Shown piece after piece: positions 1 through 42,458 of a DNA stretch of 64,000 nt. Origin of the DNA: an uncultured Myxococcales bacterium (GTDB lineage: Bacteria > Myxococcota > Kuafuiibacteriia > Kuafuiibacteriales > Kuafuiibacteriaceae). The stretch covers positions 14,913 through 78,912 of the forward strand of contig CAZFIV010000008.1 of NCBI GenBank assembly GCA_964519665.1. Direction: 5' to 3'. The notes beneath the pieces are model-generated. The model did no database searches. It worked only from the letters and a program-made list of their open reading frames with translations, and was not told the origin of the DNA. A program made the position numbers and the translations under genes. Every line of letters begins with the position of its first letter. The first letter of the stretch is position 1.

Positions 1-56
1 GCGCCACCTACGGCCGCCCTTTGCCCTCCGGAGCGCCCTGAAGTACACGTCGGTGC

Positions 57-1157
57 ATGTTGCTCCGGATCGCTAGCGCCGCCCGCTGGCTCAGTTTCAT
101 TGCCATTGTCGTGTTCGCGGCCGGCCAGCCGGCCACCGCGTGGAGCCAGGAGCCTCCGCCCGATTCTTCCGAACTTCGGGTGGGAATCAGCCCGTTCGCC
201 CCCTTCGTGGTGGATGGTCCATCGCCCGAAGGCTACAGCATCGATCTCTGGGAAGAGATCTCCCGCCGGATCGACCGAAAGTACAAGTTTGTCATGTGCA
301 AAGGGGCCGCCGACAAGCTCGAGCGACTTCAGCGCGGCGAGCTCGACGTCGCCATCGGCGGGTTGACCACGTCTCGCGAGCGCGAGAGTCAGATCGACTT
401 CACCCACGCGACGTACCGCTCCGGCCTGGGGATCATGCTGGCCGGCCAACCGACCCCGCCGACGGTCTGGGATCGCATCTCCGGCGCCCTCAGTCGGGCC
501 AACTCGACGATCGTCATTGCGTTCATCCTATTCGTGGTCGTCGCGGGCAACCTGGTCTGGCTCTTCGAACGAGGCAAAGACAGCTTCGACCGGCGTTATC
601 TGCCGGGGCTGTTTGAAGGCATGTACTGGGTCGTCGTCACCGCCAGCACCGTCGGCTACGGCGACAAAGCGCCGCTGAAGTACTCAGGCCGCATCCTAGC
701 CATGATCATCATCATCATTTCCTTGCCCATGTTTGCCCTCTTTACGGCCGAGCTCGCGTCGGCGTTCACTCTTCAGAGCATCACCGCGGCGGTCAGTGGG
801 CCCGAAGATTTGATCGGAAAGAAGGTTGGCGTCATCCGTGGCACGTCATCGGCCAGGTTCGCCGCCGAACGGGGCCTATCGCTCCGCCAAGTCGACAACG
901 CCGAGCAGATGTATGAAACGCTCCTCGATAACAAGGTCGCGGCGGTCATCTACGATGCACCCAGCCTCAAGTATTTCGAGCAAACGGAAGGACAAGACAA
1001 AGTGTATCTCGCGGAGCGCACCTTCGACATCCGAGACCTCGCGATCGCCACCCGACAGGGCAGCGCGCTGCGCGAACAGATCAATCGGGCCATTCTCGAT
1101 TTGGAAGCCACCGGCGAGATGACCGAGCTGCGAGTAAAGTGGTTCGGAAGCCAGTGA
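57..1157 (+). CDS. Ligand-gated potassium channel, GluR0-like (periplasmic solute-binding domain split by an M1-P-M2 pore)
   Basis: A signal peptide is followed by a type-3 solute-binding-protein lobe 1 (LRVGISPFAPFVV...DVAIGGLTTSRERESQIDFTHATY). TM helix M1 follows, then a pore loop with the canonical K+ selectivity filter TASTVGYGD (nt ~642-668), then helix M2 (ILAMIIIIISLPMFALF). SBP lobe 2 follows (KKVGVIRGTSS...VAAVIYDAPSLKYF). This S1-M1-P-M2-S2 topology is that of prokaryotic ionotropic glutamate receptor homologues. Confidence 0.8.
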   Translation: MLLRIASAARWLSFIAIVVFAAGQPATAWSQEPPPDSSELRVGISPFAPFVVDGPSPEGYSIDLWEEISRRIDRKYKFVMCKGAADKLERLQRGELDVAIGGLTTSRERESQIDFTHATYRSGLGIMLAGQPTPPTVWDRISGALSRANSTIVIAFILFVVVAGNLVWLFERGKDSFDRRYLPGLFEGMYWVVVTASTVGYGDKAPLKYSGRILAMIIIIISLPMFALFTAELASAFTLQSITAAVSGPEDLIGKKVGVIRGTSSARFAAERGLSLRQVDNAEQMYETLLDNKVAAVIYDAPSLKYFEQTEGQDKVYLAERTFDIRDLAIATRQGSALREQINRAILDLEATGEMTELRVKWFGSQ

Positions 1158-1159
1158 CG

Positions 1160-2164
1160 TCAACGCACCCGGCAAGCCCGGTAGGTCGACCGCGTCGGGT
1201 CACACCAGCAGACCGCCACCCGACGACTCAACAGGTCGAGCGCATGGGCGAAGGCCGTTCCCTCCGTCTTTCGAGCTTCGATGAGTAGAGCGCTGCGATC
1301 GGCTTCAGCCCACCGAAAACGAGTCTGCTGTTGGGCCAGCTTGCGCCGCAACGAGCGGCAACGTCGCTCGTGGGGCCGGTCGTCGCAGTGCTCGGCCCTC
1401 TTCGCCTCACTCTTGGCGATGTCCTTGACCACCTTGCAGCGCGCCTTTTCGGCCTTCGCCATTTTACGGATGTACTGACGCCGGTGGCGGGTCTCGCCCA
1501 GCCGGCGGGCGAATGCGAGCAGCGATCCCGACGTGGACGACGGCACGTCCCAGTGATGCTCATCGACTTCCACCGCATCGGCCTTCCATTGCGCGGTTTG
1601 CGATTCGCCCAACACCGTCTTCGGGCTGACATCCGGTGCCGCGTCTGAATCGGCTACCCCCTCGGCGAGCCGGTTCTCGCCGGCGGCGACCGATGCTGGC
1701 GCCCCGGTCAGTTGACCGATGGCTTGATCCAGCGAGCGAAGAACTTCCAACCCGGTGCACGCCCCGCGGGCGGTTCCGGCACCTTCCGACGCCGACGTGG
1801 CCAGATCGAACAGACGGAGGTTCACCAAACACAACCCGCCGAACTTGCGGATACTCCCCACGACGACCTTTTCGGCGGCGAGCTCTTTGCCGACCTCGAT
1901 CTGGCAACTCTCGTCGTAGCAGGCCTCGAAGCTCACCTTCTTCTGGGCCGCGAGGGTCCGCTTGATCTCGGAGCGCGGGACGACCTTGAAACGCCCCGAA
2001 GCCGCGACCTGGGTCGACACATACTCGCTCAGATACTCAAACTCGTCGGACTTGAACTCGGACGCGTCGCCTTGAAGATTGAACACCGCGACCACCGGCG
2101 TTCGTTCGGATTCACCAGGCGCGCCCATCAGGGTGAAGGCCAGGGCCGCGATTCCCGTGAGCAT
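1160..2164 (-). CDS. Hypothetical secreted protein with a possible LpoB/CsgG-like N-terminal fold and a charged C-terminal region
   Basis: The N-terminus is hydrophobic. The segment VAVFNLQGDASEF...SGRFKVVPRSEIKRTLAAQKK...CYDESCQIEVGKELAAEKVVVGSI resembles the LpoB/CsgG/TolB-N type alpha/beta fold. The 3' third of the ORF is Arg-rich and GC3 is only moderate, so the C-terminal extent is uncertain. Confidence 0.45.
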   Translation of the reverse strand: MLTGIAALAFTLMGAPGESERTPVVAVFNLQGDASEFKSDEFEYLSEYVSTQVAASGRFKVVPRSEIKRTLAAQKKVSFEACYDESCQIEVGKELAAEKVVVGSIRKFGGLCLVNLRLFDLATSASEGAGTARGACTGLEVLRSLDQAIGQLTGAPASVAAGENRLAEGVADSDAAPDVSPKTVLGESQTAQWKADAVEVDEHHWDVPSSTSGSLLAFARRLGETRHRRQYIRKMAKAEKARCKVVKDIAKSEAKRAEHCDDRPHERRCRSLRRKLAQQQTRFRWAEADRSALLIEARKTEGTAFAHALDLLSRRVAVCWCDPTRSTYRACRVR

Positions 2165-2212: not shown

Positions 2213-3349
2213 TCACATTCGTTCGATCACGGCCTCGGTGACCGTCGACATCGACGCGGCCCGATCATCTCCGGCGAGATCGAAGGTTAGGGGCTCTCCA
2301 GCGCGTAAAACGGCTCGAATCGCTTCTTCGACGCTGGAGGCGGCCAGCTGCAGCTCTCGCAGCTGACGCCGTCCGCCCAACCATCGAAGGCCCTCCGCCA
2401 CCGCACCGATCATGGCCATGGGGTTGAGCTTGTCCTGGCCCGCGAAAGGAGGCGCCGTTCCGTGTATCGGTTCGAACATGCCGTGCTGGTCGCCCACGTT
2501 GCATCCGACGGCCAAACCCATGCCCCCCTGTAGGACGGAGGCGAGGTCGGTCACGATGTCGCCGAACATGTTCGTCGTCACGATGACGTCGTAGCGCTCG
2601 GGCTCGGTGATCAACCACTGGGTAAAAGCGTCGACGATCGCGACGTCCGGCTCGACGTCTGGAAACTCCCGCGAGACCTCGAAAAAAATCTCCACGAACA
2701 TGCGACAGCCCTCCAGCACGTTGTTCTTCACGACCGCCGTCACCCGTTTTTGGCCGTCTTTGGGCGCTCCGAGCCGGCGATGGGCCGTCTGAAACGCGAG
2801 TCGAATGATCCGTTCGGACGCTCTTCGAGTGACCACCCGCGTGTCGGTCGCCACGTGGGCCACCCCCGCTGGCCGAAGGATCGCGCCCGCGCCGACGTAG
2901 AGGTCTTCGGTGTTCTCGCGCAGGAAGACCATATCGACGTTGGCCGGCTCCCAGACGGGGCGCCGACGGCCCGAGATCCGGTGCTGAACCCCTTCGTAGA
3001 GGCGGACCGGCCGAATATTCGCGTATAGGTCGAGGCGCATCCGGTTGCCGATGACCGGATTCCAGCCGGCCATGCGTCCGTCTTTCATCGTGATCGGGCC
3101 TCGTCCGGTTGGATCCGGCCATCCGACCGCGCCGAGGAGGATGAGGTCGGCCTCCGCGCAGCGAACCTCGCTGCCCTCGGGCCAGTCCCGGCCGTGCTGC
3201 AGATAATACTGCCCCCCGCACGGGATCTCATCGAGGTCGAAGCGGAGCGCGAATCGTTGAGTCACCCGGGCCAGGACGCGCTTGGCCATTTCGATGACTT
3301 CAACCCCGGCGCCGTCGCCCGGCAGCAGCACGAATCTGAATGGCTTCAT
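2213..3349 (-). CDS. Isocitrate/isopropylmalate dehydrogenase family protein (tartrate dehydrogenase or 3-isopropylmalate dehydrogenase-like)
   Basis: The ORF is full length (378 aa). It carries the family signature NMFGDIVTDLASVLQGGMGLA and the start MKPFRFVLLPGDGAG, as in the beta-decarboxylating dehydrogenases. Confidence 0.85.
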   Translation of the reverse strand: MKPFRFVLLPGDGAGVEVIEMAKRVLARVTQRFALRFDLDEIPCGGQYYLQHGRDWPEGSEVRCAEADLILLGAVGWPDPTGRGPITMKDGRMAGWNPVIGNRMRLDLYANIRPVRLYEGVQHRISGRRRPVWEPANVDMVFLRENTEDLYVGAGAILRPAGVAHVATDTRVVTRRASERIIRLAFQTAHRRLGAPKDGQKRVTAVVKNNVLEGCRMFVEIFFEVSREFPDVEPDVAIVDAFTQWLITEPERYDVIVTTNMFGDIVTDLASVLQGGMGLAVGCNVGDQHGMFEPIHGTAPPFAGQDKLNPMAMIGAVAEGLRWLGGRRQLRELQLAASSVEEAIRAVLRAGEPLTFDLAGDDRAASMSTVTEAVIERM

Positions 3350-4046: not shown

Positions 4047-5699
4047 CTACCGGGCTTTCTCTAAGCGCATCAGGGCGACGTCGATCTGCGATAGGGCCTC
4101 TCGTGTTCGAGCTCGGCTCAGTCGCGCTCCGAGCGCCGTCAGGCGCCGCTGCCACTCAACATCGTATTTCACCTTACGGAGCTGCTTGATGCGGACCAGC
4201 AGCGCCTCCTTTTCGGCTCGTAGCGCCGGAGTCAGCGTCGGTACCGATCGCTCCGGGGTCGCTGACTCGCTCGGCGCTTCATCGTCGCGGTCGCTCGATG
4301 GGACGATTTCGGCCACTGGTGACAGGGGAATCGATGTCGATGAAGGAGTCTCGGTCGGGACTCGAATCGACTCGACGTAGACCACGGCATGAGAGGGAAG
4401 CATCAGCCAAACCGTCATCCCGGCAACCGCGCAGACCACCCCCACGAAGGTCGAGAAAACGGCGACGACGCCGGTGACCGTCCGATTCTGAAAGGCCTCG
4501 AACATATCCGCGGGGACCGCCACGAGGGCCCTGAGAGCTTCCCGCAGGAGCCCCTCTCGAGGTCCGGCTGGCGACGATGCCGCCGAAGAACCGGGCGAAG
4601 ACCGATCGTCGAGCTCACCGACGAAGATCTCGACCTGCGAAGACGCCCCCCCGAAGACTGGGACCTGCTGCCGTACCTGCTGCCCTAGCTGCTGCCCTAG
4701 CTGCTGCCCTAGCTTCTGCCCTACCTGCTGCCGAACCTGCTGGAGCGCCCGGCGCTCGCGGGCAATGATCGTCGCGCAAGCCGCGTCCAGCCAGCCACGA
4801 ACGGAGGTCGGGTGCTGAAACCGACGAACTCGCCGCAGCTCGTTCTCCAGACCGACCCGAAGCTCGTGGGCCGACGCCAGGCGCCGCTCGGGCTCCGGAT
4901 CCATCCCCTGCTGAAGAAGCTGTTCGAGGCTTGCCGGCGCGTCCGGGCGACGGTCGCGCAGAGTTTCAGGCCGCGCTTCGAGCGCTCGCCGCACGCGGTC
5001 GGCCAGGTTGTCTTCGCGGACTCTCTTGACGCCCGCAAGGAGCTCCCAGATCGAAACGGCGGCCGCGTACACGTCGGCCCGGGCATCGACGACCGCCCCT
5101 AGCGCCTGTTCGGGTGGCATGTAATCCGGGGACCCGGCGAGCACTTCGACCGCGGTGTGCCAATCGGCGAGGATCGACTTACCGAGGCCGAGATCGATGA
5201 GGCAGACCTGCCCATCGAAGCCGACCAACACATTGCGGGCCCCGACGTCGCGATGCACCAGTCCGAGCGCCGCCCCGGTCGTGAGGTGCCGGGCGCCGTG
5301 CACCGCCTCGAGGCCTGATGCCAGTTTTATTGCCACTTGCAGGGCGACCTGCACGGGTACGGGTTCGATCGCGGCTCGGTGGACCCGGTCCACGATTTGG
5401 CTAAGCTGGATCCCAAACACGAACTCGGTCGCGAGAAACGGTTCTCCGTCGACGGTGCCCATGGCCACGAGTGCGGCAACGTTGCGGTGGCGCACATGAC
5501 TAGCGACCTCGGCTTCATGTACGAACCGTTTGAAGAGTGTGGGCTCCCGCACCATGCCGGGGTGCATCCGCTTGACGACGAGGAGGCCGTCGGTGCCCGG
5601 GTGGGCGGCCAAATAGGCCGAGCCCATCCCGCCGGCGCCGAGGCGTTTGAGCAAAATGAAGGGGCCGAAGGACTCGGGACTGTCGGCGACGGAGCCCAC
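4047..5699 (-). CDS. Transmembrane Ser/Thr protein kinase (Hanks-type) with an (LGQQ)n repeat linker
   Basis: The kinase domain shows subdomain I (LGAGGMGSAY), a catalytic loop (HRDVGARNVLV) and DLGLGK. It is followed by QQVGQKLGQQLGQQLGQQV, a TM helix (VTGVVAVFSTFVGVVCAVAGMTVWLML) and a roughly 130-aa extracytoplasmic coiled-coil tail. Confidence 0.9.
   Translation of the reverse strand: MGSVADSPESFGPFILLKRLGAGGMGSAYLAAHPGTDGLLVVKRMHPGMVREPTLFKRFVHEAEVASHVRHRNVAALVAMGTVDGEPFLATEFVFGIQLSQIVDRVHRAAIEPVPVQVALQVAIKLASGLEAVHGARHLTTGAALGLVHRDVGARNVLVGFDGQVCLIDLGLGKSILADWHTAVEVLAGSPDYMPPEQALGAVVDARADVYAAAVSIWELLAGVKRVREDNLADRVRRALEARPETLRDRRPDAPASLEQLLQQGMDPEPERRLASAHELRVGLENELRRVRRFQHPTSVRGWLDAACATIIARERRALQQVRQQVGQKLGQQLGQQLGQQVRQQVPVFGGASSQVEIFVGELDDRSSPGSSAASSPAGPREGLLREALRALVAVPADMFEAFQNRTVTGVVAVFSTFVGVVCAVAGMTVWLMLPSHAVVYVESIRVPTETPSSTSIPLSPVAEIVPSSDRDDEAPSESATPERSVPTLTPALRAEKEALLVRIKQLRKVKYDVEWQRRLTALGARLSRARTREALSQIDVALMRLEKAR
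4665..4742. repeat. Tandem 12-bp repeat (ctgctgccctag x ~6.5, imperfect at the ends) inside the kinase gene
   Basis: Direct reading gives ctgctgccgtac / ctgctgccctag x3 / cttctgccctac / ctgctgccgaac. The repeat is in frame and encodes the (QQLG)n block of the kinase on the minus strand. Confidence 0.85.
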
Positions 5700-5747
5700 G
5701 CGGGTTCAAATTACCTCGACGCTGCGGGTAGGCCAAACCACGCCTGA

Positions 5748-6695
5748 CTATGCGGCCACTACGACGGTGGGGTCTTCATGGTATTCGTTGAGCCACTCCG
5801 GCTCTTCGAGGGGCAGACAAGCGGCCATAATCCGGTCGATGGCGCCCATCCACGCCCGAGCGCAGGTGGGACGCCGGTCGGGGTCCAGATCGAGGCTCTT
5901 CACCACCACCGGTGCCAACCGAGCCAGCTCCTCAGAATGCGGAACGGCCGCATCGGCGAGCGCGTCGAGAAAATCAGCCGGGGGGCGCTCAGCGATCGCC
6001 AGGGCGACGGCGGCCAACACCGAGGCCTCCCACGGCCTCCGCGTCGCGAAAAGGTCGTAGGCGAGCACCCCGAGCTGAAAAACGTCCGCTCGGTGGGTCA
6101 CCGGCGCCTGCTGGAGCTGCTCGGGGGCCATGATGTGCGGGGTGCCCAGAACACAACTCGGCTTGGCCCCCTCCTTCATCGCGATCCCGAAATCGATGAG
6201 CCACGGACGCCCCTCCTCATCGATGATGATGTTCGCGGGCTTGATATCGCCGTGGACGATGCCATCGAGTCGAAGGTGATCCACGGTCTCGGCGATGTCG
6301 CGAATGATCCGAAGGCGCTGTTGCATCGACAACTCGCCTTTGGCCAAAGCGATGGCCAGCGACTCGCCTTCTATCAGGTCCATCGCGATCCACACCTGGT
6401 CATCGAAATGCCCGTACTCGTGCACACGCGGCACCCTCGGGGCCGAAGTGCCGCCCAGCAGCTCGGCCTCTTGCCGATGCTGGTCGAGCAAGCCTTCCGG
6501 CAATCCCTGGAAGGTGACCTTGAGGGCCGCCCGGCGACCCGTGTGGCGGTGGGTCGCTGCGAACACTCGTCCCATCCCGCCAGAGCCGATCTGGCGACCG
6601 AGGACGTACTGCGGGAGCTTCTGCCTCAGCGACATGTCCCGTTCGTCTGCACGTTTCGTGCCGACGACCGAGACATGCGAGACTCGCCGGAGCAC
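5748..6695 (-). CDS. Ser/Thr protein kinase (soluble, Hanks-type)
   Basis: Motifs present are IGSGGMGRVFAATH, HGDIKPANIII, DFGIA and APE (IMAPEQ). The gene lies in tandem with, and on the same strand as, the upstream kinase. Confidence 0.9.
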   Translation of the reverse strand: MLRRVSHVSVVGTKRADERDMSLRQKLPQYVLGRQIGSGGMGRVFAATHRHTGRRAALKVTFQGLPEGLLDQHRQEAELLGGTSAPRVPRVHEYGHFDDQVWIAMDLIEGESLAIALAKGELSMQQRLRIIRDIAETVDHLRLDGIVHGDIKPANIIIDEEGRPWLIDFGIAMKEGAKPSCVLGTPHIMAPEQLQQAPVTHRADVFQLGVLAYDLFATRRPWEASVLAAVALAIAERPPADFLDALADAAVPHSEELARLAPVVVKSLDLDPDRRPTCARAWMGAIDRIMAACLPLEEPEWLNEYHEDPTVVVAA

Positions 6696-6758: not shown

Positions 6759-7559
6759 TCAGGCGGCCCGAGCCTCCAACTCGCGAGCGAGCTGGATATA
6801 ACTTTGAGACCCTCGGCTCGCCAGATCGTAACTAATGCATGGCTTGCCGTGTGAAGGCGCCTCCGACAGCCGGATATTTCGAGGGATCATCGTCTCGAAG
6901 CACTGGTCGGTGTAGAAGCCCTTCACTTCGGTGACGACCTGATGGGACAGGTTGTTCCGGGGGTCATACATCGTGAATAGAATGCCCTCGATCCTGAGCT
7001 CAGGATTCAGAGAGTCCCGGACCATCTCGATGGTGTCCATCAGCTTCGAGAGCCCTTCCATCGCGTAGTACTCGCATTGAACGGGCACGAGGACGGTATC
7101 GGCGGCCGAAAGACCATTGATGGTCAAAAGGTCGAGCGAAGGTGGGCTGTCTACCACAAGGTAGTCATAGTGCTCCTTGATGGGGGCCAAGACATCGCGA
7201 AGTCGCAGATGGGGCTGTTCCAGCTGCGCCAATTCGAGACCCGCGCCCGCGAGGTCACGGTTCGAAGGGGCGATGAACAGGGTCTCGATCTCCGTGCTGC
7301 GCACGATCTCCCCCAGCGACCGGTTCCCCAGCAGGGCATCGTACACCCCGCTGGATAGCTCATGAACCGCTATTCCGACGCCGGAAGAAGCGTTGCCCTG
7401 AGGGTCCATATCGACGATGAGGACCCGTCGACCGTCAGCGGCCAGCGAAGCACCAAGGTTCACGGCCGTAGTTGTCTTGCCAACCCCACCCTTTTGGTTG
7501 GCGATCGAGATAACGCGTCCCACGATAAACGTTGCACGCGGTAGCACGTAGTGACTCAC
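6759..7559 (-). CDS. ParA/Soj/MinD-family P-loop ATPase (orphan, no adjacent parB)
   Basis: A deviant Walker A motif is present (ISIANQKGGVGKTTTAVNLGASLA). The ParA-type length and motifs fit (VLIVDMDPQGNAS; DYLVVDSPPSL). Confidence 0.9.
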   Translation of the reverse strand: MSHYVLPRATFIVGRVISIANQKGGVGKTTTAVNLGASLAADGRRVLIVDMDPQGNASSGVGIAVHELSSGVYDALLGNRSLGEIVRSTEIETLFIAPSNRDLAGAGLELAQLEQPHLRLRDVLAPIKEHYDYLVVDSPPSLDLLTINGLSAADTVLVPVQCEYYAMEGLSKLMDTIEMVRDSLNPELRIEGILFTMYDPRNNLSHQVVTEVKGFYTDQCFETMIPRNIRLSEAPSHGKPCISYDLASRGSQSYIQLARELEARAA

Positions 7560-7684
7560 ACCGGCAACGGTTGACAGCCACCTCGGTGAAGCCTAGGTCC
7601 CAATATACACCGGGGGTGACACGCCGCGCCACTCGCTTCGGTGCTGCGCTCGTTTCCTACGGCTGCATAGAAGGAGAACCCGTC

Positions 7685-8473
7685 ATGAAAATTCTCGCCA
7701 CCGTGAAGCGCGTCACGGACTATGAGCGGAAGGTCAAGATCGCCCCTGATGGCGCGAGCCTCATCACCGACGGCATGAACTTCGTGCCGAATCCTTTCGA
7801 CGAGATCGCCGTCGAGGAGGCGCTTCGGCTGGTGAAAGCCCATGGCGGCGAAGTCGTCGCCGTCAGCGTCGGTCCGAAGGAAGCGACCCAACAGATTCGA
7901 CAAGCCCTCGCCATGGGGGCCCAGCGCGGTATTCTGGTTGTCGCCGAGGAGACCGATTCCGACGCGTATGCTCGCGTTCTGGTCAAGCTGGTCGAAAAAG
8001 AGTCCCCTGATTTGGTCCTGATGGGCAAGCAGGCGACCGACGACGATGCGAACCAAGAAGGTCAGCTTCTCGCTGGCTATCTCGGCTGGCCGCAGGCCAC
8101 CTTCGCTTCAAAGGAAGTCGGCCTCGACTCCGCGGAAGAGAAGGCTCAAAAGCCCGGCGTAGTGGTTGAAGGCAGCTCGGCGGTGGTGGTTCGCGAAGTC
8201 GATGGAGGCCTCGAACACGTCAAGTTCGACCTCCCCGCAGTGATCACCACCGACCTGCGTCTCAACCATCCCCGGTTCGCCTCGCTGCCGGGCATCATGA
8301 AGGCCAAGAAGAAAAAGATCGAAGAGATCCCGGTCGATAGCCTGGGTATCGACGTGGCGCCGAAGGTTCGGATGGTCAAGTTCGCCGAGCCGCCGACCCG
8401 AAGCGCTGGCCAAACAGTGGCCGATGTGGACGAGCTTCTCGCGAAGCTCAAGAACGAAGCGAAGGTGCTCTGA
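7685..8473 (+). CDS. etfB: Electron transfer flavoprotein beta subunit
   Basis: The N-terminus MKILATVKRVTDYERKVKIAPDG... is typical of EtfB. An ATG at 7685 is preceded by a GAAGGAGAA RBS, so the longer track ORF starting at 7532 is an overcall. Confidence 0.9.
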   Translation: MKILATVKRVTDYERKVKIAPDGASLITDGMNFVPNPFDEIAVEEALRLVKAHGGEVVAVSVGPKEATQQIRQALAMGAQRGILVVAEETDSDAYARVLVKLVEKESPDLVLMGKQATDDDANQEGQLLAGYLGWPQATFASKEVGLDSAEEKAQKPGVVVEGSSAVVVREVDGGLEHVKFDLPAVITTDLRLNHPRFASLPGIMKAKKKKIEEIPVDSLGIDVAPKVRMVKFAEPPTRSAGQTVADVDELLAKLKNEAKVL

Positions 8474-9854: not shown

Positions 9855-11750
9855 GTGCAGTCTTGGGGAGAAAGCCTCGTCCCGCAGGCGAGTCAAGACC
9901 TCGCCCGCCGCGCCGGGCCGGGCATCGCTCTGCTCCCCCTCGTCTTCGTAGCGATGGCCCTGCCGGCGGTTCCTCTGTGGCCGTCGATGCTGTGGTCGGT
10001 GGGCATCTCGATCGGCTTGGTCTCGGCCTTGCGAATCGCTCTGACCCGCTCGCTCTTGGCTCGACCCGCGAGCCCCGCTGGTGACCGCCGCCTTTGGGCG
10101 TTCGGAGCCCTCACTACGCTCGCCGCCATTCTGTGGTCTTTCGGAACAATAACTGTCGTCTTGAGGTACGGGTACACACCGGAGACCTACCTGATGATCA
10201 TCGGTACGGCCGGGGTGTCGGCGGGCGCCGTGACCTCCCTGAACGTCTCGCGCTGGATGGTCCTCAGCTATTGTTTGGTGTTGATGGTCCCGCTGCTCGT
10301 GGCCACCGTCTGGATGACCATCTACCACGACGGCTACATCAGCATGCCGTTCATGGGCGTCCTGTACATCGTCCTGATCTTGGTCACGGCGGAGCGCGCC
10401 AACCGCGAATACTGGAGCCGGTTGCTGGCCCGACACCAGATCGAGCTGCAACAGCGCGTCCTCGCAAAGGCTCACCGCGACGCCCGAGCGGCGGCAGTGG
10501 CCAAGACTCAGTTTCTCGCGTCGATGTCTCACGAAATTCGGACCCCGATGAATGGCGTCATGGGCGCTGCTCAGCTTCTCCGAGATACCCGGCTGTCGCC
10601 GGAGCAAGCCCAACTGGTCCGAATGCTCGAGTCGTCCGGCAGAGCGCTCCTTCACATCATCGATGACATCCTCGACTTCTCGAAGATCGAAGCTGGCCGG
10701 ATGAAGGTCGAGGATATTCCGTTCGACTTGTTCGAGCTGGTCGACGACGCGGCGATGATGATGGGCAGCCAGGCGACCACCAAGGGGCTGAGCCTCGAAG
10801 TCGACTACGCCACCGGAACTCCTCAACATGTCCGAGGGGACCCGACGCGCATCCGCCAGATCCTGCTGAATCTGCTGTCCAACGCGATCAAGTTCACCGA
10901 AGTCGGCGGCATCGAGGTCAAAGTCATGGAGTCGCTGGGGCCATCCGCGCCTCCGGCGAGCCGCGAGAGCACCGACGACCCGCCCTCCGCCGAAAGCGAA
11001 GAAGAACGTCGGCACATCGTCCGGCTCGAGGTCCATGATACCGGCCCTGGGGTTCCCCCCGAGAGTCGTAGCCATCTCTTCAAAGCGTTTAGCCAAGCCG
11101 ATGCATCCACGACCCGTCGGCACGGCGGGACCGGACTCGGCCTCGCGATCAGCAAACGGCTATGCCTGCTGATGAATGGGACCATCGGCTTTTCACCTCG
11201 ACCGGGGGGCGGGTCCGTATTCTGGTTCAGCATCGGGTTTGCGCAGGCACCGGCCCCCGTGGTCGTGCCCAAGGCCGCCGTCGAGCCGCCTACCGGGCGA
11301 CCCGGGTCGGAAGAGCGACCCCGAATCCTGATCGTCGAGGATAATCAGGTCAATCAGCTCCTCGCGGCCCGGTTCCTCGAACGGGCGGGATTCGGGTGCG
11401 AAGTCGCCTCGTCGGGGGAGCAGGCGCTGCGGGTGCTCGAGAATCACCGGTTCGACGCCGTCCTGATGGACTGCCAGATGCCAGGCATGGACGGCTTGGC
11501 GACCACTCGCGCCATCCGCCAACAAGAGGCACCGAACGGCCCTCGACTGCCGATCGTCGCCCTCACCGCCGACGCTATGGACGGCACCCGGGAACGCTGC
11601 CTGGACGCCGGCATGGACGATTTTCTGACCAAACCCGTGCAGGCCGACGAGATGGCCGAGGTGCTCCACCGCGTGCTCAGCCAGGACACCGCGGCCACTT
11701 ACCCCTCCCAAGCCGTCGAAGAAAGTGCCCGTCTCGGCCGCGCCCCTTGA
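9855..11750 (+). CDS. Hybrid sensor histidine kinase/response regulator with a polytopic (~6 TM) membrane-embedded N-terminal sensor
   Basis: About six TM helices are followed by HisKA (FLASMSHEIRTPMNGVMGAAQLL), HATPase_c (GGTGLGLAISKRL) and a C-terminal receiver (ILIVEDNQVNQLLAARFL...DAVLMDCQMPGMDG...LTKP). The true start may lie downstream of 9855. Confidence 0.85.
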   Translation: MQSWGESLVPQASQDLARRAGPGIALLPLVFVAMALPAVPLWPSMLWSVGISIGLVSALRIALTRSLLARPASPAGDRRLWAFGALTTLAAILWSFGTITVVLRYGYTPETYLMIIGTAGVSAGAVTSLNVSRWMVLSYCLVLMVPLLVATVWMTIYHDGYISMPFMGVLYIVLILVTAERANREYWSRLLARHQIELQQRVLAKAHRDARAAAVAKTQFLASMSHEIRTPMNGVMGAAQLLRDTRLSPEQAQLVRMLESSGRALLHIIDDILDFSKIEAGRMKVEDIPFDLFELVDDAAMMMGSQATTKGLSLEVDYATGTPQHVRGDPTRIRQILLNLLSNAIKFTEVGGIEVKVMESLGPSAPPASRESTDDPPSAESEEERRHIVRLEVHDTGPGVPPESRSHLFKAFSQADASTTRRHGGTGLGLAISKRLCLLMNGTIGFSPRPGGGSVFWFSIGFAQAPAPVVVPKAAVEPPTGRPGSEERPRILIVEDNQVNQLLAARFLERAGFGCEVASSGEQALRVLENHRFDAVLMDCQMPGMDGLATTRAIRQQEAPNGPRLPIVALTADAMDGTRERCLDAGMDDFLTKPVQADEMAEVLHRVLSQDTAATYPSQAVEESARLGRAP

Positions 11751-11792
11751 CCCGCGAACCTCGAGGCTCCTGAATAACGGGTACGCCCGACG

Positions 11793-13862
11793 ATGGAGCT
11801 CCACTTGTGCCCGCCCATGCATCGTCAGATGCAGCAGGATCTCGGGGTCTACGCCCAGCCCGGCCTCTACATGTTTCCGGGATTGATAGCCGGCTTCGCC
11901 GCGCTCAGCCCGGACGTGCGCGAGCTGGGGCCGACCTTCTGGGCGCCCGCGACCGTGATGACGTTGTTGGTCGTGGCCCGCCTCCCGCTCGCGCGACGAC
12001 TGGCCTCGAACCCGCCCACCGCCCACCGACACCCGATCGGATGCGCGTTCGTCTGGCTGGCCTGGATCGGAGCCGCCGGTTGGGGCCTGACCGTCGCGGT
12101 CACCCTCCACCAAGCAGGGTACAGCGAGGGCACCTATCTGCTCATCATGGCGACCGCGGGCGTCGCCGCCGGGGCGACCGCCGCCCTGTCGGTGTCGGAA
12201 CGCATCATCGTGCCCTACGTGGTCGTGCTCCAGGCCCCGCTGTGCGTAGCGACGACCATCCTCGGCCTGAGTGGACGCGGTACCCTGGTCATGCCGCTGA
12301 TGTACGTCATGTTCACCGGCTACATCGTCTTCATGGGGGCGCGTCTCAGCCGGGCCTACCAGAGCAAACTCAGCGTCATCGTCGATGCGCAAGCCGCAGT
12401 GATGGCCGCGGAGGCCAAGCGGCGTTTCCTGGCATCGGTCGCGCACGAACTAAGAACACCGATGAACGGAATCATGGGCGTTTCGGACCTCCTCAAGGAG
12501 ACCGAGGTCCGCCCCGAGCAAGTAGAATTGCTGGCGACATTCGACGAAGCGTCGAAGGCCCTGCTTCGGATTATCGACGAGGTCCTGGACTTCGCCAAGG
12601 CCGAGGATGGCCACGTCGAGATCATCAACGCTCCGTTCAGCCCTACGGACTGCGTCGAAGAGGTCGTCGGCGTCATGGAACCGGTGGCCCGGAGTAAGCA
12701 ACTCGAGCTGTCGATGTGGTTCGCCCAGGACCTACCCGAGTTAGTGATCGGCGATCAGGGCCGACTTCGACAGATCCTGATCAACTTGGCCGGTAACGCC
12801 ATCAAGTTCAGTCGGGTCGGCGGGGTTCACTTCCAGGTTCGCCGCCGAGCGGCCGGCCCCGGTCTTCGGTTGTCGGTCACCGACACCGGTCCCGGGCTCG
12901 AAGCAGGCTTTCAACCGTTCGAGCCTTTCGCCCAGGGCGCCGCCGGTGCCGAGCACGGAGGAACGGGGCTCGGCCTCGCCATTTGCGACCGATTGACGAA
13001 GCTGATGGGCGGTGCGATCGGCTTTGAACAAGCTGACCGGGGCGGTACGACGTTCTGGCTCGAGGTGCCTTTCGAAACGCACACACCGCGACGAGACCCG
13101 CCCCGCTTCGGCCGCGCGGCTTGGGTCATCGACCGTTGGGCCCCCGGCCGGTCGGCCACCGTCCAGCTTCTTCGGCGGTGCGGCGTCCACGCCGAGGCGG
13201 TGGCCCATGATGCGGGTCCGCCGCCCCCCGGCATCGACGTGTGGCTGGCCATCGACGACGCAACCCCCGACACGCAGGATGAATTGACACGACTGCGAGG
13301 CCCGGACACCCGGCTCGTCGTGATGACCACCCGCGAGCGTCACGCTGCCATGAGTGATGTCCTCGGCGGTCGGGCCGACTTCGTCACGACGCGGCCGTTG
13401 ACCCATCGCCTGGTCGAGCGAGTGTTGGACCGCCACCCATCGCCCGACGTCTCGAGGGCCGGTCCCCGGCCTCGCGTGGAGCTCGACTCGCCTCGGCGCG
13501 TCCTGATCGTCGAAGACAATCGGGTCAACCGAATGGTCGCCGAACGATTCGTGCGCGAAGCCGGCTTCGACAGCGAGGTCGCTCATTCGGGCCGGGAGGC
13601 TCTTCTTCGATTCTCGGAGACCTCGTGGGACGCGATTCTGCTCGACTGTCGGATGCCGGAGATGGACGGATGGGAAACCGCCCGGGCCATTCGCCGCCTG
13701 GAAGCCGACTCCGAGCGTCGGGTTTCGATCATTGCCATGACCGCCGACGTGGAAGACCTCACCCGCGAGCGCTGCTTCGAGGCGGGCATGGATGCATACC
13801 TCCCGAAGCCGGTCGACCCCGCGGCGTTGGTGAACCTTCTGCGGCAGGTCACAAAAGCCTGA
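11793..13862 (+). CDS. Hybrid sensor histidine kinase/response regulator, paralogue of the upstream gene
   Basis: The architecture is the same. Its TM core GTYLLIMATAGVAAGATAALSVSERIIVPYVVVLQAPLCVATTIL aligns with ETYLMIIGTAGVSAGAVTSLNVSRWMVLSYCLVLMVPLLVATVWM of the upstream gene. HisKA is FLASVAHELRTPMNGIMGVSDLL. An extra roughly 150-aa linker precedes the receiver (VLIVEDNRVNRMVAERFV...ILLDCRMPEMDG). Confidence 0.85.
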   Translation: MELHLCPPMHRQMQQDLGVYAQPGLYMFPGLIAGFAALSPDVRELGPTFWAPATVMTLLVVARLPLARRLASNPPTAHRHPIGCAFVWLAWIGAAGWGLTVAVTLHQAGYSEGTYLLIMATAGVAAGATAALSVSERIIVPYVVVLQAPLCVATTILGLSGRGTLVMPLMYVMFTGYIVFMGARLSRAYQSKLSVIVDAQAAVMAAEAKRRFLASVAHELRTPMNGIMGVSDLLKETEVRPEQVELLATFDEASKALLRIIDEVLDFAKAEDGHVEIINAPFSPTDCVEEVVGVMEPVARSKQLELSMWFAQDLPELVIGDQGRLRQILINLAGNAIKFSRVGGVHFQVRRRAAGPGLRLSVTDTGPGLEAGFQPFEPFAQGAAGAEHGGTGLGLAICDRLTKLMGGAIGFEQADRGGTTFWLEVPFETHTPRRDPPRFGRAAWVIDRWAPGRSATVQLLRRCGVHAEAVAHDAGPPPPGIDVWLAIDDATPDTQDELTRLRGPDTRLVVMTTRERHAAMSDVLGGRADFVTTRPLTHRLVERVLDRHPSPDVSRAGPRPRVELDSPRRVLIVEDNRVNRMVAERFVREAGFDSEVAHSGREALLRFSETSWDAILLDCRMPEMDGWETARAIRRLEADSERRVSIIAMTADVEDLTRERCFEAGMDAYLPKPVDPAALVNLLRQVTKA

Positions 13863-17386: not shown

Positions 17387-18031
17387 GTGAGCGCGCGGCG
17401 CGGTTTGCAGGTCAGCTTTCTGCTGGCCGGGATTTTCTCCATGGCGGCCGCGGAGGCACAGGTCGAGCCTTTGAAGGCGCGTCTTGTGTCGGATGGCACG
17501 CACTTGCGCGCCCAGTTCAGCATCACCAATGCTTTTACGGAGTCGTTTCGGAAACGGATGGCCGGCGGTCTGACGAATCGAGCCGTGCTGGCCATCGAAC
17601 TGCTCGACATGAGTTCAGATGTGTTCGTCGTTCGACAACGCAAGTGTGAGCTACGGGTAGACGTCTGGGACGATCGGGTATACGCGCGCGTCACCGATGA
17701 AGACCGGGAGCGGCGGCGGATTTACGCCCTCATCGATGATGGACTTCGGGCCTGCGGCCTGGTCGACGTCCCCCTGACGACGGTCGACAGGCTCACCGCC
17801 CCGACATACCGACTCCGCGTTCAGATCGCCCTCAACCCGATTTCACCGGAGCTTCGCGAACGAAGTCGGGAGTTCATGTCGAACCCCCAAGGCACCGCAT
17901 CCAGCCGTACCCCGGCATTCTTTGGCGCCGTCGCGCGTTTGTTCCGGTCGGAATCCGCTGCCGGTGGCACGGTGTTCGTGTTCCAATCCGGCCGATTGAA
18001 GAATCCGGTGAGCGAGGAGACGCCGCGGTGA
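17387..18031 (+). CDS. DUF4390-like periplasmic protein (often encoded immediately upstream of NtrY-type sensor kinases)
   Basis: The 214-aa product has a signal peptide (VSFLLAGIFSMAAAEA) and overlaps the downstream kinase start by 4 bp. The family assignment is from memory of the family pattern and has not been verified. Confidence 0.45.
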   Translation: MSARRGLQVSFLLAGIFSMAAAEAQVEPLKARLVSDGTHLRAQFSITNAFTESFRKRMAGGLTNRAVLAIELLDMSSDVFVVRQRKCELRVDVWDDRVYARVTDEDRERRRIYALIDDGLRACGLVDVPLTTVDRLTAPTYRLRVQIALNPISPELRERSREFMSNPQGTASSRTPAFFGAVARLFRSESAAGGTVFVFQSGRLKNPVSEETPR

Positions 18032-19566
18032 GGTGGCCGAGGTTTTCGAGGTTCGAGGGTCGAATCTTGGGCGCTATTTTCTTATGCGCCACCACCCCCT
18101 TCGTCATCTCGATCATGTTCATCCCCGGGATTATCCAGTCGCGCCTGGCTCTCGCCATGCACGATGACGTTCGCAGCCAGCTGGAGCGGTCCGCGGTCTT
18201 CTTCAAAGATTTTTTTGACGCCAAAAAGGCCGAGTACTCCGCTCGCGCCGAGACGATCTCCCGGGATCCGGTCCTCATTCGGGCGGCGCGGGCGGGTGAA
18301 GCCGACGACGTCTCGGCCCGGCTTCAGCAGTTCGTCGCCGACCACGAGGCCATTCGGGAGCTGCGAGTCTACGATCCGATCGGTGCACTGCTCGCTCGCG
18401 CCGAAGGACCACCGGAGCGCCAGGGCGATCGGTTCGTTCCCAAAACCATCGCGTTGCCGCTCGGTGTGGGCGACGCGCCCCGACTCGAAGCGGTGTTCAT
18501 CCTGTCGCGCGTCTATCTGAACGAACGCGACAAGGCGGAGTCGATCTCCCTATTGTACAGCGTGTCGCTGCGTGACGAGAGCAGTCGGGCGAATGGTTTC
18601 TATCGCGCCTACGTGGCCATCGCCCTCGTGGTGATGCTGGTGGCGGTGGCGATCGGCTACTTCCTCGCGCGAGGCGTGACCAAACGCATCGCGGAGCTCG
18701 CCCACGCCACCGAGCGGGTGGCCCAAGGCGAATACGGCTTCACGGTACCCGTGGGCGGCAATGATGAAATCACCGAGCTGACCGACGGCTTCAACCGAAT
18801 GATTCACGAGGTGGCGCAAGCCCGCGACCGGATCGTCTACCTCGAGAAGGTCTCGGGCTGGCAGGAGCTCGCCCGTCGACTCGCGCACGAAATCAAAAAC
18901 CCGCTGACCCCGATCCGGTTGGCCATCCAGGAGCTTCGACGCCGTGCGCCAGAGGGCGATGGTCGCTTCCGGCGACTGGTCGACGAGTCGACCGACATGG
19001 TCGAGGAAGAGATCGGGGCCCTGACCCGACTGGTCGACGAGTTCTCACGCTTCGCCAAGCTTCCCGAAGTCATGCCCGTCCATGTCGAAGTCCGCGAGTT
19101 CCTGGCCGACTTCCTCGGTGCGTACAACAACTTCGAGCCCGACGCGCGAGTGACCTTCGAGACCCCAAACGAACCGCTCGTCGCAGGGATCGACCGGGTC
19201 CTCATGCGACGCGTTCTGCACAATCTGGTCACCAACGCCATTCAGGCGGCGGGTCCGGGCCAAGCCGAGTTGAGCATCCGGTGCTTCGGCGCCGAAAAGG
19301 AGCGCATCGAGCTTCGGGTGGAAGACAACGGACCGGGTGTGCCCGACGACCAGGCGCACAAGGTTTTCGAACCTTATTTCACGACCAAGGCCACCGGCAC
19401 CGGCCTCGGCCTGGCGATCGTCAAGAAGATCGTTCTGCAGCATCGCGGCACCATTGTCCTCACCCGCTCCGAGGCGGGCGGAGCGGCCTTCGTCATCACC
19501 CTTCCCGCGGCGCCCGCGGGCGTCACCCCCGAGCGCGGCGATGCGCCGCCTTCCCGGCCGATCTAG
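18028..19566 (+). CDS. Sensor histidine kinase, NtrY/AtoS-like (2 TM, HAMP, HisKA, HATPase)
   Basis: Present are TM1, a periplasmic domain, TM2 (AIALVVMLVAVAIGYFLA), a HAMP domain, an H-box LAHEIKNPLTPIRLAIQEL, and N/G boxes (HNLVTNAIQA; GTGLGLAIVKKIVLQHRGTI). No response regulator is adjacent. Confidence 0.85.
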   Translation: MRWPRFSRFEGRILGAIFLCATTPFVISIMFIPGIIQSRLALAMHDDVRSQLERSAVFFKDFFDAKKAEYSARAETISRDPVLIRAARAGEADDVSARLQQFVADHEAIRELRVYDPIGALLARAEGPPERQGDRFVPKTIALPLGVGDAPRLEAVFILSRVYLNERDKAESISLLYSVSLRDESSRANGFYRAYVAIALVVMLVAVAIGYFLARGVTKRIAELAHATERVAQGEYGFTVPVGGNDEITELTDGFNRMIHEVAQARDRIVYLEKVSGWQELARRLAHEIKNPLTPIRLAIQELRRRAPEGDGRFRRLVDESTDMVEEEIGALTRLVDEFSRFAKLPEVMPVHVEVREFLADFLGAYNNFEPDARVTFETPNEPLVAGIDRVLMRRVLHNLVTNAIQAAGPGQAELSIRCFGAEKERIELRVEDNGPGVPDDQAHKVFEPYFTTKATGTGLGLAIVKKIVLQHRGTIVLTRSEAGGAAFVITLPAAPAGVTPERGDAPPSRPI

Positions 19567-20638: not shown

Positions 20639-22903
20639 CTAAGGCCGCGCGCCGACCGGCGTCGCTTTGAGCGCGGCCTTGCCGTCCTTCTTGTAGACCT
20701 GAAAACGTACCGTTCGACAATTGTACTTCTTCATGAGGCTGTCGCGGTTCTTGACCAGCTTCGCGAGGAAGCGCTCGAAGGCGAGATCGTTCGTCGGCTC
20801 CCCACAGCGGCGCCGGAGATCGATGAAGCGTTCATACACTTCCTTGAAGTGCTCGTGGTCCTCGGGATCGAGGGTGGCGGACGGCGGCGCGGCCGCCCGA
20901 GACGTCGGGTCCCTTGCCGCCGACTGCGCCAGCAGGTCGGCCGGAACGGTCGCCACGACCGTAGCGTCGGGCTTGTCGTCCTGAGAGAAGGTATGGCGAC
21001 CGGTCAGGTCTTCGCGGGCCGATTGCGCGAGCAGCTCCGATGCGACCGGGGCGACGACGGTCTCCTCCGGTCCGAAGGCGGCCCGCTCCTCCTCGTTCAC
21101 ATGAGGCAAGGCCGCCGGTTGGCGGAGGTCGAGGCTGCCCCCCCCTCGAACACCGGGCCTGGGAGCGACGGGCCCGGAAGGAGGAATGCTGACTTCCTCG
21201 ACCGGTCCGGCCGCCTCGAGACTGCCGGCCATGGGTCGCCCTCGGATGTCCGCGGCTGATCTTCGGCTGCCTGCCGAGGCATCCGCCGGTCCGCCTTCGA
21301 GTTGCGCGATCGCCTCGGCGATCGCTTCTTCCGCCCCTGGCGTCGAGGGTACACCGAGCGCGGCCATATCCGACGGGTGGGTATCAGCGGGAGGGGCGAG
21401 CGCTTCCGTCTGCTCGCTGAGTTCGAACTGCGATCGTGCGGGCGTCGTATTGACCACCGGAGTGGGCACCGACGGAGGAACCGGCGACGGCGGTAAGCTC
21501 TCGAAAGACAGGCTGTCGAGACCATCGGCGCCGAGCACTAGGTCGGGGCCCTTGTCGTCGCCGGCCGACGGCGGGGGTGGGGGCGGCGCGGCCAGAGGCG
21601 GCGCCGGCGGAGGCGACGCAGGCGGAGGAGAAATCGGTTGAGGAGGCGAACGCAGCGACGAGATCCCGGACGGCCCGCCCGGCGCCCCCGGCGGATTGGT
21701 TCCGAGAGGACCTAGATCGCCCAACGAGAGCTCCTCTTCGGGCCCGACCATCCCCGGCGGCCGGGTCGACATGCTCCCGATGTCCGCCGTGGGAACGAGG
21801 GCGCGGTTCGGGATCTTCAGCACGGTCATGTTGACCAGCTTCACGATGCGGCGAAAGGGACGGCTCACCTCGTTCTCGGGCATCTGGAGGTCGCCCTTGC
21901 CCATATTGAGGTCAGACAAGTGCTCGGCGATCTTGTGAATCGGCACCACGAAACCTCGGAAGTTCAGAATCCCCACCAACAGCGCGACCAGAAACGCCGC
22001 CACCATCGCCCCCAACACGCCGCTCTGACGCTCGGCGATCTCGTCGAGCCCGGCCGTCGCATCGACCGAAACCACCCAGCTGAATTGGGGCGGCGCGCCC
22101 TCCACATGGGTCGAATAGGACACCAGCGCATGCCCGGTGGCTCGATGGTCGACGAAAAGCGGCAGTAGCGGAATGGTGTCGTCGGTGAGAGGTTCTTCGC
22201 TCTGCCCCGAGAAGTTGACGACCTCTTTCTTGGACGCCTCGACGACGGTCTTTGCGAGGGCGTCGGGCGCCGAACTCACGAGGACGCGCTTGTCGGAGGA
22301 TAGCGTCACGTGGCCTCCGAGGCTCCCGCCCCAGGCGGTCACGGCCTCTTTGTCGATCGGCCGCCCGAGCACGATCGCGCCGAGGATGTCGCCGTCGTCA
22401 TCGACCAGGGGTGCTCCCACGGCCACGACGAACTCGGGACGGGCGCTCCACAGTCCGTCCAGAGCGTAACCGAGCTGCGTTGAAACGAAGATCGGGTGGC
22501 CGTCGATCGACGGAGGGTTCTCGTCGATGTTCGATCGACCGGCCGACAAGAGAACGCGGCCCCGCCGATCGACCAGCCAGGCGAACCCGCGTTTTGGCTT
22601 CGCGGCTTCGAGCAACTTCAGGAGCCCCGTCAGGGCTCGTTCGCCCCGGGAGCCGGAGCGGCCGAGGTCGGCGACCTTGTTGCCGATGACCGCTTCGTGC
22701 GCGGTCGCCATCACTTCCGTGAGCGAGTCGTAGGCGTCTTTCTCGACCATCCGGAGCAGACGGGGCACCGCCTGCTGCACGTAATCTCGACTTCTCTTTT
22801 GCGCCTGCTCGACCACCGAGGTCGTGTCGATGTACAGCGCAACCCCGAACGGTGTGAGGACCGTCAGGACCAACAAGGCCGCGTGTCGAGTCCAAAAGCT
22901 CAT
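20639..22903 (-). CDS. Membrane receptor: TM, dCache-like periplasmic domain, TM, HAMP-like segment, a roughly 250-aa Pro-rich linker and an unrecognised C-terminal domain
   Basis: TM1 (HAALLVLTVLTPFGVALYI) is followed by a roughly 250-aa periplasmic Cache-like region, then TM2 (VLGAMVAAFLVALLVGIL) and a HAMP-like helix (IHKIAEHLSDLNMGKGDL). A PPPASPPPAPPLAAPPPPPP-rich low-complexity stretch follows, and the protein ends in a compact domain ...HEHFKEVYERFIDLRRRCGEPTNDLAFERFLAKLVKNRDSLMKKYNCRTVRFQVYKKDGKAALKATPV. Confidence 0.7.
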   Translation of the reverse strand: MSFWTRHAALLVLTVLTPFGVALYIDTTSVVEQAQKRSRDYVQQAVPRLLRMVEKDAYDSLTEVMATAHEAVIGNKVADLGRSGSRGERALTGLLKLLEAAKPKRGFAWLVDRRGRVLLSAGRSNIDENPPSIDGHPIFVSTQLGYALDGLWSARPEFVVAVGAPLVDDDGDILGAIVLGRPIDKEAVTAWGGSLGGHVTLSSDKRVLVSSAPDALAKTVVEASKKEVVNFSGQSEEPLTDDTIPLLPLFVDHRATGHALVSYSTHVEGAPPQFSWVVSVDATAGLDEIAERQSGVLGAMVAAFLVALLVGILNFRGFVVPIHKIAEHLSDLNMGKGDLQMPENEVSRPFRRIVKLVNMTVLKIPNRALVPTADIGSMSTRPPGMVGPEEELSLGDLGPLGTNPPGAPGGPSGISSLRSPPQPISPPPASPPPAPPLAAPPPPPPSAGDDKGPDLVLGADGLDSLSFESLPPSPVPPSVPTPVVNTTPARSQFELSEQTEALAPPADTHPSDMAALGVPSTPGAEEAIAEAIAQLEGGPADASAGSRRSAADIRGRPMAGSLEAAGPVEEVSIPPSGPVAPRPGVRGGGSLDLRQPAALPHVNEEERAAFGPEETVVAPVASELLAQSAREDLTGRHTFSQDDKPDATVVATVPADLLAQSAARDPTSRAAAPPSATLDPEDHEHFKEVYERFIDLRRRCGEPTNDLAFERFLAKLVKNRDSLMKKYNCRTVRFQVYKKDGKAALKATPVGARP

Positions 22904-25951: not shown

Positions 25952-25970
25952 CCGAGGCCCTTCGAACGGC

Positions 25971-29479: not shown

Positions 29480-29545
29480 CGCGTTTTGTCGGCCCCAGGA
29501 GGGCCCACCCTTCTCCCGTGATGGCCCTACCACGCGCCCCGACGG

Positions 29546-35555: not shown

Positions 35556-35601
35556 CCCGCCGCTTGGCCGGTTGGAAACTCTCAGCTCCCAGCGGGTTTA
35601 C

Positions 35602-42387: not shown

Positions 42388-42458
42388 CGGAGCGGTCCTT
42401 ATCGAACGGGCGACCAGGGCTGGCAAGAGGGGAATGCCGCTGCTACGATCCGCGCGCC

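Follow-up and report, generated by a model that had tools for sequence, protein, structure and literature searches.

The window analysed here is a stretch of 64,000 nucleotides from an uncultured Myxococcales bacterium (contig CAZFIV010000008.1), and close to its start, at 57..1157 on the plus strand, lies a complete gene for a channel subunit of the GluR0 type, the prokaryotic form of ionotropic glutamate receptor (iGluR) that carries a potassium-selective pore. The product has the order S1-M1-P-M2-S2, in which S1 and S2 are the two parts of a ligand-binding clamshell, M1 and M2 are transmembrane (TM) helices and P is a re-entrant pore segment. The gene and its parts, all on the plus strand, are as follows.

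57..1157 (+), complete gene for the GluR0-type channel subunit: ATG start, 366 amino acids, TGA stop at 1155-1157 (list of open reading frames (ORFs), Pfam architecture)
57..140 (+), predicted Sec signal peptide, residues 1-28: hydropathy peak at 5-23, n-region with R4 and R10, h-region LSFIAIVVFAA, A-T-A before W29
171..443 (+), S1, first part of the ligand-binding clamshell, residues 39-129: aligned with S1 of 2pyy, 1ggg and Slr1257; contains G101-G102-L-T104 and R109 (nt 381-383)
444..503 (+), S1-M1 linker, residues 130-149, with a pre-M1 helix at 137-147 (AlphaFold secondary structure)
504..569 (+), M1, outer transmembrane helix, residues 150-171: hydropathy segment 152-170 (score 2.79), model helix, alignment with KcsA TM1
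597..665 (+), re-entrant pore helix (181-196) and K+ selectivity filter T198-V-G-Y-G-D203 (nt 648-665): Ion_trans_2, KcsA alignment
681..788 (+), M2, inner pore-lining helix, and M2-S2 linker: helix 209-244, membrane core 213-231 (hydropathy score 2.64), alignment with KcsA TM2 'LVTAALATWF', bundle crossing FTAELASAF
789..1154 (+), S2, second part of the clamshell, residues 245-366: aligned with S2 of 2pyy, 1ggg and 1ii5; contains G262-T263-S264-S265 and D300 (nt 954-956)

Domain architecture and predicted structure

The protein is matched above the gathering cut-offs by Pfam models for binding proteins and for channels. SBP_bac_3 spans residues 40-364 (78.5 bits), its model being split by a large insert, and Ion_trans_2 covers residues 163-237 (51.1 bits), while the two iGluR families Lig_chan (residues 157-256, 36.6 bits against a cut-off of 30.8) and Lig_chan-Glu_bd (residues 57-129, 33.1 bits against 30) are matched as well. 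Single-model E-values for the protein range from 1e-8 to 1e-22, far past chance. Among the NCBIfam models, those for GlnH, LAO and cystine binding proteins and for K+ channels are all sub-threshold (GlnH scores 103 bits, far under its cut-off of 303 bits), so that no equivalog family names the protein. The gene has a GC content at third codon positions (GC3) of 0.79, which equals that of its neighbours (0.76-0.81) and therefore marks the region as native and genuinely coding.

A Kyte-Doolittle scan finds a hydrophobic N-terminal segment (residues 5-23), two strong TM segments (152-170 and 213-231) and a weak segment (182-200) that ends in the filter, and detects no hydrophobic segment past residue 245. 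The chain ends at residue 366, straight after S2, and thus has no M4 (third TM) helix; likewise, S1 begins about 10 residues past the predicted signal peptide, which leaves no amino-terminal domain. An AlphaFold2 model computed from an alignment of 118 sequences has a mean predicted local distance difference test score (pLDDT) of 91.8 and a predicted template-modelling score (pTM) of 0.77, and resolves a signal helix, beta/alpha lobes, the pre-M1 helix (137-147), M1 (150-171), the pore helix (181-196), an extended filter and M2 (209-244). At the N-terminus of the model a helix (residues 2-22) is followed by a low-confidence linker. The top Foldseek matches of the model are chains of AMPA receptors comprising the ligand-binding domain (LBD) and the transmembrane domain, aligned over about 370 columns with E=5e-23.

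The sequence-only reading of this DNA had placed a GluR0-type K+ channel with the order S1-M1-P-M2-S2 at 57-1157; the ORF coordinates are exact, and both the Pfam architecture and the model agree with that assignment. Its view of the lobes as solute-binding domains is borne out by matches to SBP_bac_3, Lig_chan, Lig_chan-Glu_bd and the GluR0 cores 2pyy and 1ii5, and the two TM helices that it expected on either side of the pore are found both by hydropathy and in the high-confidence AlphaFold model.

Pore, filter and membrane topology

The canonical filter that had been read from the sequence is present as residues 198-203 (nt 648-665), where TVGYGD stands within the longer stretch TASTVGYGD. 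T198, G200, Y201, G202 and D203 are invariant across 118 relatives. When the pore segment is searched alone its best match is KcsA (E=1.3e-10, 39% identity), the alignment running from M1 to the end of M2, and KCNQ2 is also similar. The residues Y190 and W191 belong to a KcsA-like pore helix. The FTAELASAF sequence of M2 was considered as a counterpart of the SYTANLAAF gate of iGluRs, and this was rejected; HMMER aligns it equally well with VTAALATWF of KcsA, and it is therefore the generic bundle-crossing motif.

The N-terminus (MLLRIASAARWLSFIAIVVFAAGQPATA, with the cut placed before WSQ by the AXA rule) resembles a Sec signal peptide, AXA site included, and a cleavable-looking signal peptide is accordingly predicted for the channel protein. 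Lysine and arginine residues number 7 in the two loops between M1 and M2 as opposed to 2 in the periplasmic (outer) flanks. This bias agrees with an inverted pore, in which the ligand-binding domain would be periplasmic and the P-loop would enter the membrane from the cytoplasm.

Ligand-binding residues and ligand class

Alignments give identical counterparts in the channel for a set of residues of the E. coli glutamine-binding protein GlnBP: G68 corresponds to G102, T70 to T104, R75 to R109, T118 to T263 and D157 to D300. We take these GlnBP residues to be ligand contacts, as in the 1wdn complex. Among the 118 relatives, which are 40-66% identical to the channel protein, R109 is arginine and D300 is aspartate in 117 each, and the T104 position is held by T or S in 117. 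G101 does not vary at all, G102, T263 and Y299 hardly vary, and G262 is invariant or nearly so. R109 and D300 also align with the matching arginine and aspartate of 2pyy and of GlnBP.

In prokaryotic iGluRs the alpha-carboxylate of the ligand is held by an arginine in S1 and its alpha-amino group by an aspartate in S2 (PMC2950845), and R109 and D300 are predicted to have these respective roles here. With both of these residues conserved the class of ligand can be inferred, and it is most probably an L-alpha-amino acid. The sequence-only reading had left the ligand open, a position that holds for the specific compound and no longer for its class. For comparison, glutamate evokes K+ currents through GluR0 with a half-maximal effective concentration (EC50) of about 30 uM, and several polar amino acids also activate it (bioRxiv 10.1101/2021.01.27.428399).

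Comparison with known systems

In a single-sequence search of the Protein Data Bank (PDB) the best chain is 2pyy, the ligand-binding core of Nostoc punctiforme GluR0 (NpGluR0), at 2e-22, followed by GlnBP and its relatives and then by Slr1257, the GluR0 of Synechocystis, at 7.6e-14. With a profile of the 118 relatives the values become 1.7e-58 for 2pyy and 1.3e-42 for Slr1257, and plant GLR3.4 and the delta, AMPA and NMDA receptors appear at 1e-26 to 1e-31, each matched in one stretch over approximately positions 31-359 of the 361-position profile. In the single-sequence search, too, AMPA subunits are matched by a single collinear alignment that starts in S1, crosses the pore and continues into S2. 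When the filter is masked with alanine, a weak collinear match of the fragment to solved structures remains (E about 1.5e-4, GluA2 474-640).

The protein type has reportedly been known since 1999, when GluR0 of Synechocystis sp. PCC 6803 (Slr1257) is said to have been described by Chen et al., and structures of its LBD are available as 1ii5, 1iit and 1iiw. Slr1257 shares with the Myxococcota channel the S1-M1-P-M2-S2 order, a signal peptide (a predicted one in the channel), a TVGYGD-type filter and the conserved arginine (S1) and aspartate (S2), and like it has neither an amino-terminal domain nor a third TM helix; the two differ in their source, Slr1257 being cyanobacterial. PhoA fusions have shown that Synechocystis GluR0 is inverted relative to KcsA, and the protein enables E. 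coli LB2003 to take up K+ and influences how Synechocystis responds to KCl upshock (2026 JBC, PMC13099474).

The structure closest to the channel protein is the NpGluR0 core 2pyy, which is a complex with L-glutamate. The core may be that of a Nostoc punctiforme sequence listed in the 2010 survey of prokaryotic iGluRs. The 2pyy cleft differs from that of the channel in having arginine in place of S45, threonine in place of I260 and phenylalanine in place of Y299. The survey assigned that Nostoc sequence to Group 2, which is without a K+ filter (PMC2950845), in contrast to the TVGYGD of the channel.

Eukaryotic iGluRs (AMPA GluA1-4, NMDA, delta and GLR3.4) have in common with the channel a collinear arrangement of S1, M1, P-loop, inner helix and S2, and a pre-M1 helix; their pore is inverted, as is predicted for that of the channel. 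The channel lacks their amino-terminal domain, M4 and C-terminal tail, is 21-24% identical to them, and has the K+ filter TVGYGD where they have a cation pore with a Q/R/N site. Membership of the eukaryotic type was thus considered and rejected on the missing amino-terminal domain, the missing M4 and the filter, and the channel is a homologue of these receptors rather than a member of their class.

KcsA and other two-TM K+ channels align with the channel end to end through M1, pore helix, TVGYGD and M2, including the TAxLA bundle-crossing motif. They differ in that the membrane orientation of the channel would be the opposite one and its gating would depend on an extracytoplasmic clamshell rather than on pH or cytoplasmic domains; E71 of KcsA is replaced by V194. 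E. coli GlnH/GlnBP (1ggg, 1wdn) and other class-F binders have the same fold as the clamshell and are 31-34% identical to it, yet GlnBP is soluble and serves an ATP-binding cassette (ABC) transporter.

Family size and distribution

A protein identical over its full length (100%; P0001) is already present in NCBI and in a Logan assembly. The best 120 clusters at 90% identity (E<=1e-83) are all relatives, and all combine SBP_bac_3 with Ion_trans_2 except for one fragment of 210 amino acids that has no SBP_bac_3 match. Those with a named source come from Myxococcales, Myxococcota, Deltaproteobacteria and Desulfobacterales, and those with a protein name are labelled either 'transporter substrate-binding domain-containing protein' or 'ABC-type amino acid transport substrate-binding protein'. 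When 1.84 billion cluster representatives at 50% identity were searched exhaustively with phmmer, 840 matched at E<=1e-30. The best 150 of these 840 are each matched in one stretch, nearly always from S1 to S2, with few fragments. Within these 150 the filter conforms to [TS][VI]G[YF]GD in 130 (TVGYGD in 117, a close variant in 13). Among the matches listed for species-representative genomes, full-length relatives occur in Myxococcota, Desulfobacterota, Gammaproteobacteria (Thiotrichales), Acidimicrobiia and Anaerolineae.

The survey of Ger et al. (2010) named this class 'Group 1, putative glutamate-sensitive potassium channel' (PMC2950845). The description of the protein as uncommon in the sequence-only reading is consequently fair only when counted per genome, for the family is large (the 840 clusters above), was catalogued in 2010 (PMC2950845) and has the identical sequence in NCBI. 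Among the solved chains searched, no full-length prokaryotic structure of the GluR0 type was found.

Some relatives are longer than the channel. The closest representative at 50% identity, P0014 (500 amino acids, 61% identity), continues for about 140 amino acids past S2, and this C-terminal extension has no Pfam match. A relative in a Myxococcota metagenome-assembled genome (L012:5281-6987) has about 240 extra N-terminal residues, also with no Pfam match, which may reflect over-extension of the ORF in GC-rich DNA.

Relatives fused to an OpuAC domain

In two Acidimicrobiia loci (L020:4912-7023 (+) and L019:1223-3319 (+)) a complete OpuAC (glycine-betaine-type) domain lies N-terminal to the GluR0 module within one ORF of 698-703 amino acids. 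A search with the L020 protein found at least 120 clusters of 655-720 amino acids, most of them about 690, that have the layout OpuAC-S1-M1-P-M2-S2 and bear the NCBI name 'ProX'. The fused proteins (P0123-P0242, P0264, P0306, P0321, P0334, P0348 and P0380) come mostly from Acidimicrobiia, including Ca. Poriferisodalis, and retain TVGYGD together with the arginine and the aspartate; all 7 of the long representatives among the best 150 at 50% identity have the OpuAC domain. At L020 the gene after the fusion (7100..8176 (-)) encodes a stand-alone OpuAC protein. The domain is absent from the channel protein of the window, and no connection between OpuAC and ionotropic glutamate receptors was found in the literature searched. 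The two-tier layout of OpuAC and LBD recalls, by analogy, the amino-terminal domain and LBD tiers of eukaryotic iGluRs, and the fusion suggests a link between the family and osmolytes or osmolyte sensing.

Proposed mechanism

Very probably the gene product is a GluR0-type K+ channel that is gated by amino acids and belongs to Group 1 of Ger et al. (2010). By homology, the signal peptide would direct S1 and S2 to the periplasm, and the pore would be inverted with respect to KcsA so that the P-loop enters from the cytoplasmic side. Four subunits would form the pore and the ligand-binding domains would pair as dimers, as in Synechocystis GluR0 and eukaryotic iGluRs. An L-alpha-amino acid would bind in the cleft, where R109 and the T104 region would contact its carboxylate and D300 its amino group, and where its distal part would lie near the S264/S265 helix cap. 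Closure of the clamshell would then pull on the S1-M1 and M2-S2 linkers and open the M2 bundle crossing (FTAELASAF), whereupon K+ would flow down its electrochemical gradient through the open pore.

The likely physiological use of such a channel is to link the supply of amino acids outside the cell to K+ flux, to membrane potential or to cell volume, for which the K+ uptake and KCl-stress role shown for GluR0 of Synechocystis provides a model (PMC13099474). A more specific proposal would have the channel tuned to extracellular amino acids other than glutamate, passing a K+ or membrane-potential signal into the kinase-rich network encoded around it. Amino acids serve myxobacteria both as nutrients and as a quorum ('A-signal') currency. 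No conserved signalling partner accompanies the gene, however, and the proposal is regarded as quite improbable; if true, it would mean a bacterial sensing system that converts chemical into electrical signals.

Weighing of the alternatives

Several observations weigh against an amino-acid-gated channel of the GluR0 type as set out above. Identity to the Nostoc GluR0 core is just 26% in S1 and 32% in S2, and the signal peptide is called by rule. When the ORFs of 21 full-length related loci and of the window were compared all against all, no neighbour was found to be common beyond small groups of loci, and the channel thus appears to be a stand-alone function. The contacts by which GlnBP recognizes glutamine are not kept either, K115 being replaced by I260 and H156 by Y299, while D10 falls in an insertion without a counterpart, so that the pocket residues point to no particular side chain. 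The same loss of side-chain-contacting positions would suit a clamshell-gated K+ channel whose ligand is not a proteinogenic L-amino acid at all; derivatives of amino acids, compatible solutes, opines and peptides would be candidates. An engineered EhuB-GluR0 chimera is gated by ectoine (bioRxiv 10.1101/2021.01.27.428399), and the OpuAC-fused channels hint at an osmolyte link. Nevertheless, R109, the T104 region and D300 are each kept in 117 of 118 relatives and together typify the amino-acid binders of this fold (PMC2950845), and the closest structure is the glutamate-bound NpGluR0 core, so a ligand of another kind is considered unlikely.

Public annotation implies another function, that of a substrate-binding or transport component rather than an ion channel. 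In NCBI and JGI, close relatives go by the name of ABC-type amino-acid transport substrate-binding proteins, and GlnPQ (6h30) is a known case of binding domains fused to an ABC permease. Yet the insert in the clamshell is a K+-channel pore by its Ion_trans_2 match, its similarity to KcsA (E=1.3e-10) and its invariant TVGYGD, with two TM helices only. Moreover, the protein has no ABC permease domain at E<=1, no permease or ATPase gene adjoins the channel gene in the window or its relatives at the 21 related loci, and Ger et al. judged ABC-transporter annotations of such proteins to be erroneous or misleading (PMC2950845); a transport component is therefore very unlikely. The channel might also be non-selective or selective for another cation, as in Group 2 or eukaryotic receptors, or the gene might be inactive. 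Here it may be noted that 18 of the 150 best representatives have no recognisable K+ filter motif and that Group 2 prokaryotic iGluRs without such a filter exist (PMC2950845). The canonical T-V-G-Y-G-D and the KcsA-like pore helix (Y190, W191) argue against a loss of selectivity, as do the intact ORF, the native GC3 and the strong conservation of the family against a dead gene, and this possibility is given hardly any weight.

GluR0-type channels are the accepted model for the merger of a binding protein with a K+ pore into ionotropic glutamate receptors, and very few of them have been studied. The amino-acid-gated channel proposed here is a compact (366 amino acids) and well-folded member from the Myxococcota that could serve for ligand de-orphanisation or structural work, and it is an example of a family whose members are still wrongly labelled in public annotation as binding proteins of ABC transport. 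It leaves the current understanding of the GluR0 family unchanged; the find is sound, yet an ordinary one.

Genomic context

The channel gene converges with a neighbour at 1160..2164 (-), which encodes 334 amino acids and has its stop codon just 2 nt from that of the channel, leaving no room for terminators. Its product has an arginine-rich C-terminal half and a sub-threshold match to DUF3280/DUF2380 (29.2 bits against a cut-off of 30.1), and the gene is also present in the related loci L082-L084. Beyond it, all on the minus strand, follow an isocitrate/isopropylmalate dehydrogenase homologue (2213..3349), an ORF of 183 amino acids and two Ser/Thr kinase genes.

On the other side, an upstream gene (window 1-41 +, continued in the 2-kb Logan contig L001:2-286) stops 15 nt before the ATG of the channel and in the same frame. 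In two of three close relatives (L082:3769-4986 and L084:3612-4985) the upstream gene encodes a polytopic membrane protein of 405-457 amino acids and follows a UDPGP gene; one of the two proteins has a weak match, below the cut-off, to PMT_2 (GT-C glycosyltransferase). Neither a sigma-70-like promoter nor an intrinsic terminator was found in contig L001. Within its own lineage the channel gene is perhaps co-transcribed with the gene for the membrane protein. Synteny is limited to relatives that are 63-67% identical, in which UDPGP, the GT-C-like membrane protein and the channel are followed, on the other strand, by DUF3280, Iso_dh, a Polyketide_cyc2-like gene and two Pkinase genes, and this restriction to close relatives points to vertical inheritance rather than to a functional operon.

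Other features of the window

The window has a GC content of 64.6%, and over its 64 kb no tRNA genes and no Rfam families at the gathering threshold were detected. Signalling genes are concentrated at 4047-6695, 9855-13862, 18028-19566, 27299-29533, 38846-40660, 45969-47078 and 55633-57567. These stretches encode three Ser/Thr kinases, two receiver-domain hybrid histidine kinases, a HAMP histidine kinase, a receiver-DUF4388-DnaJ-TPR protein, a double-FHA protein and a second DUF4388 protein, a content that is typical of Myxococcota. Taken with the GC content and with a Ras-like GTPase gene beside one for a PilT-like ATPase, these genes suggest that the chromosome is Myxococcota-like.

Eight large ORFs of 465-754 amino acids have no Pfam match at E<=1e-5 and are listed as putative genes, three of them being consecutive on the plus strand (40741-45940):

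20639-22903 (-), ORF without Pfam match
23682-25115, ORF without Pfam match
25716-27293, ORF without Pfam match
34008-35555, ORF without Pfam match
40741-42297, ORF without Pfam match
42459-44540, ORF without Pfam match
44543-45940, ORF without Pfam match
61098-62573, ORF without Pfam match

A protein of 349 amino acids with a weak Arf/Ras-like GTPase match (35572-36621 (+)) adjoins a PilT/T2SSE-type ATPase (37265-38425 (+)), a pair that recalls the GTPases of myxobacterial motility and polarity. At 49980-52814 (+) lies the gene for a ribonucleotide reductase of class II (B12-dependent) that carries a TSCPD domain at its C-terminus; long shadow ORFs overlap this gene on the opposite strand.

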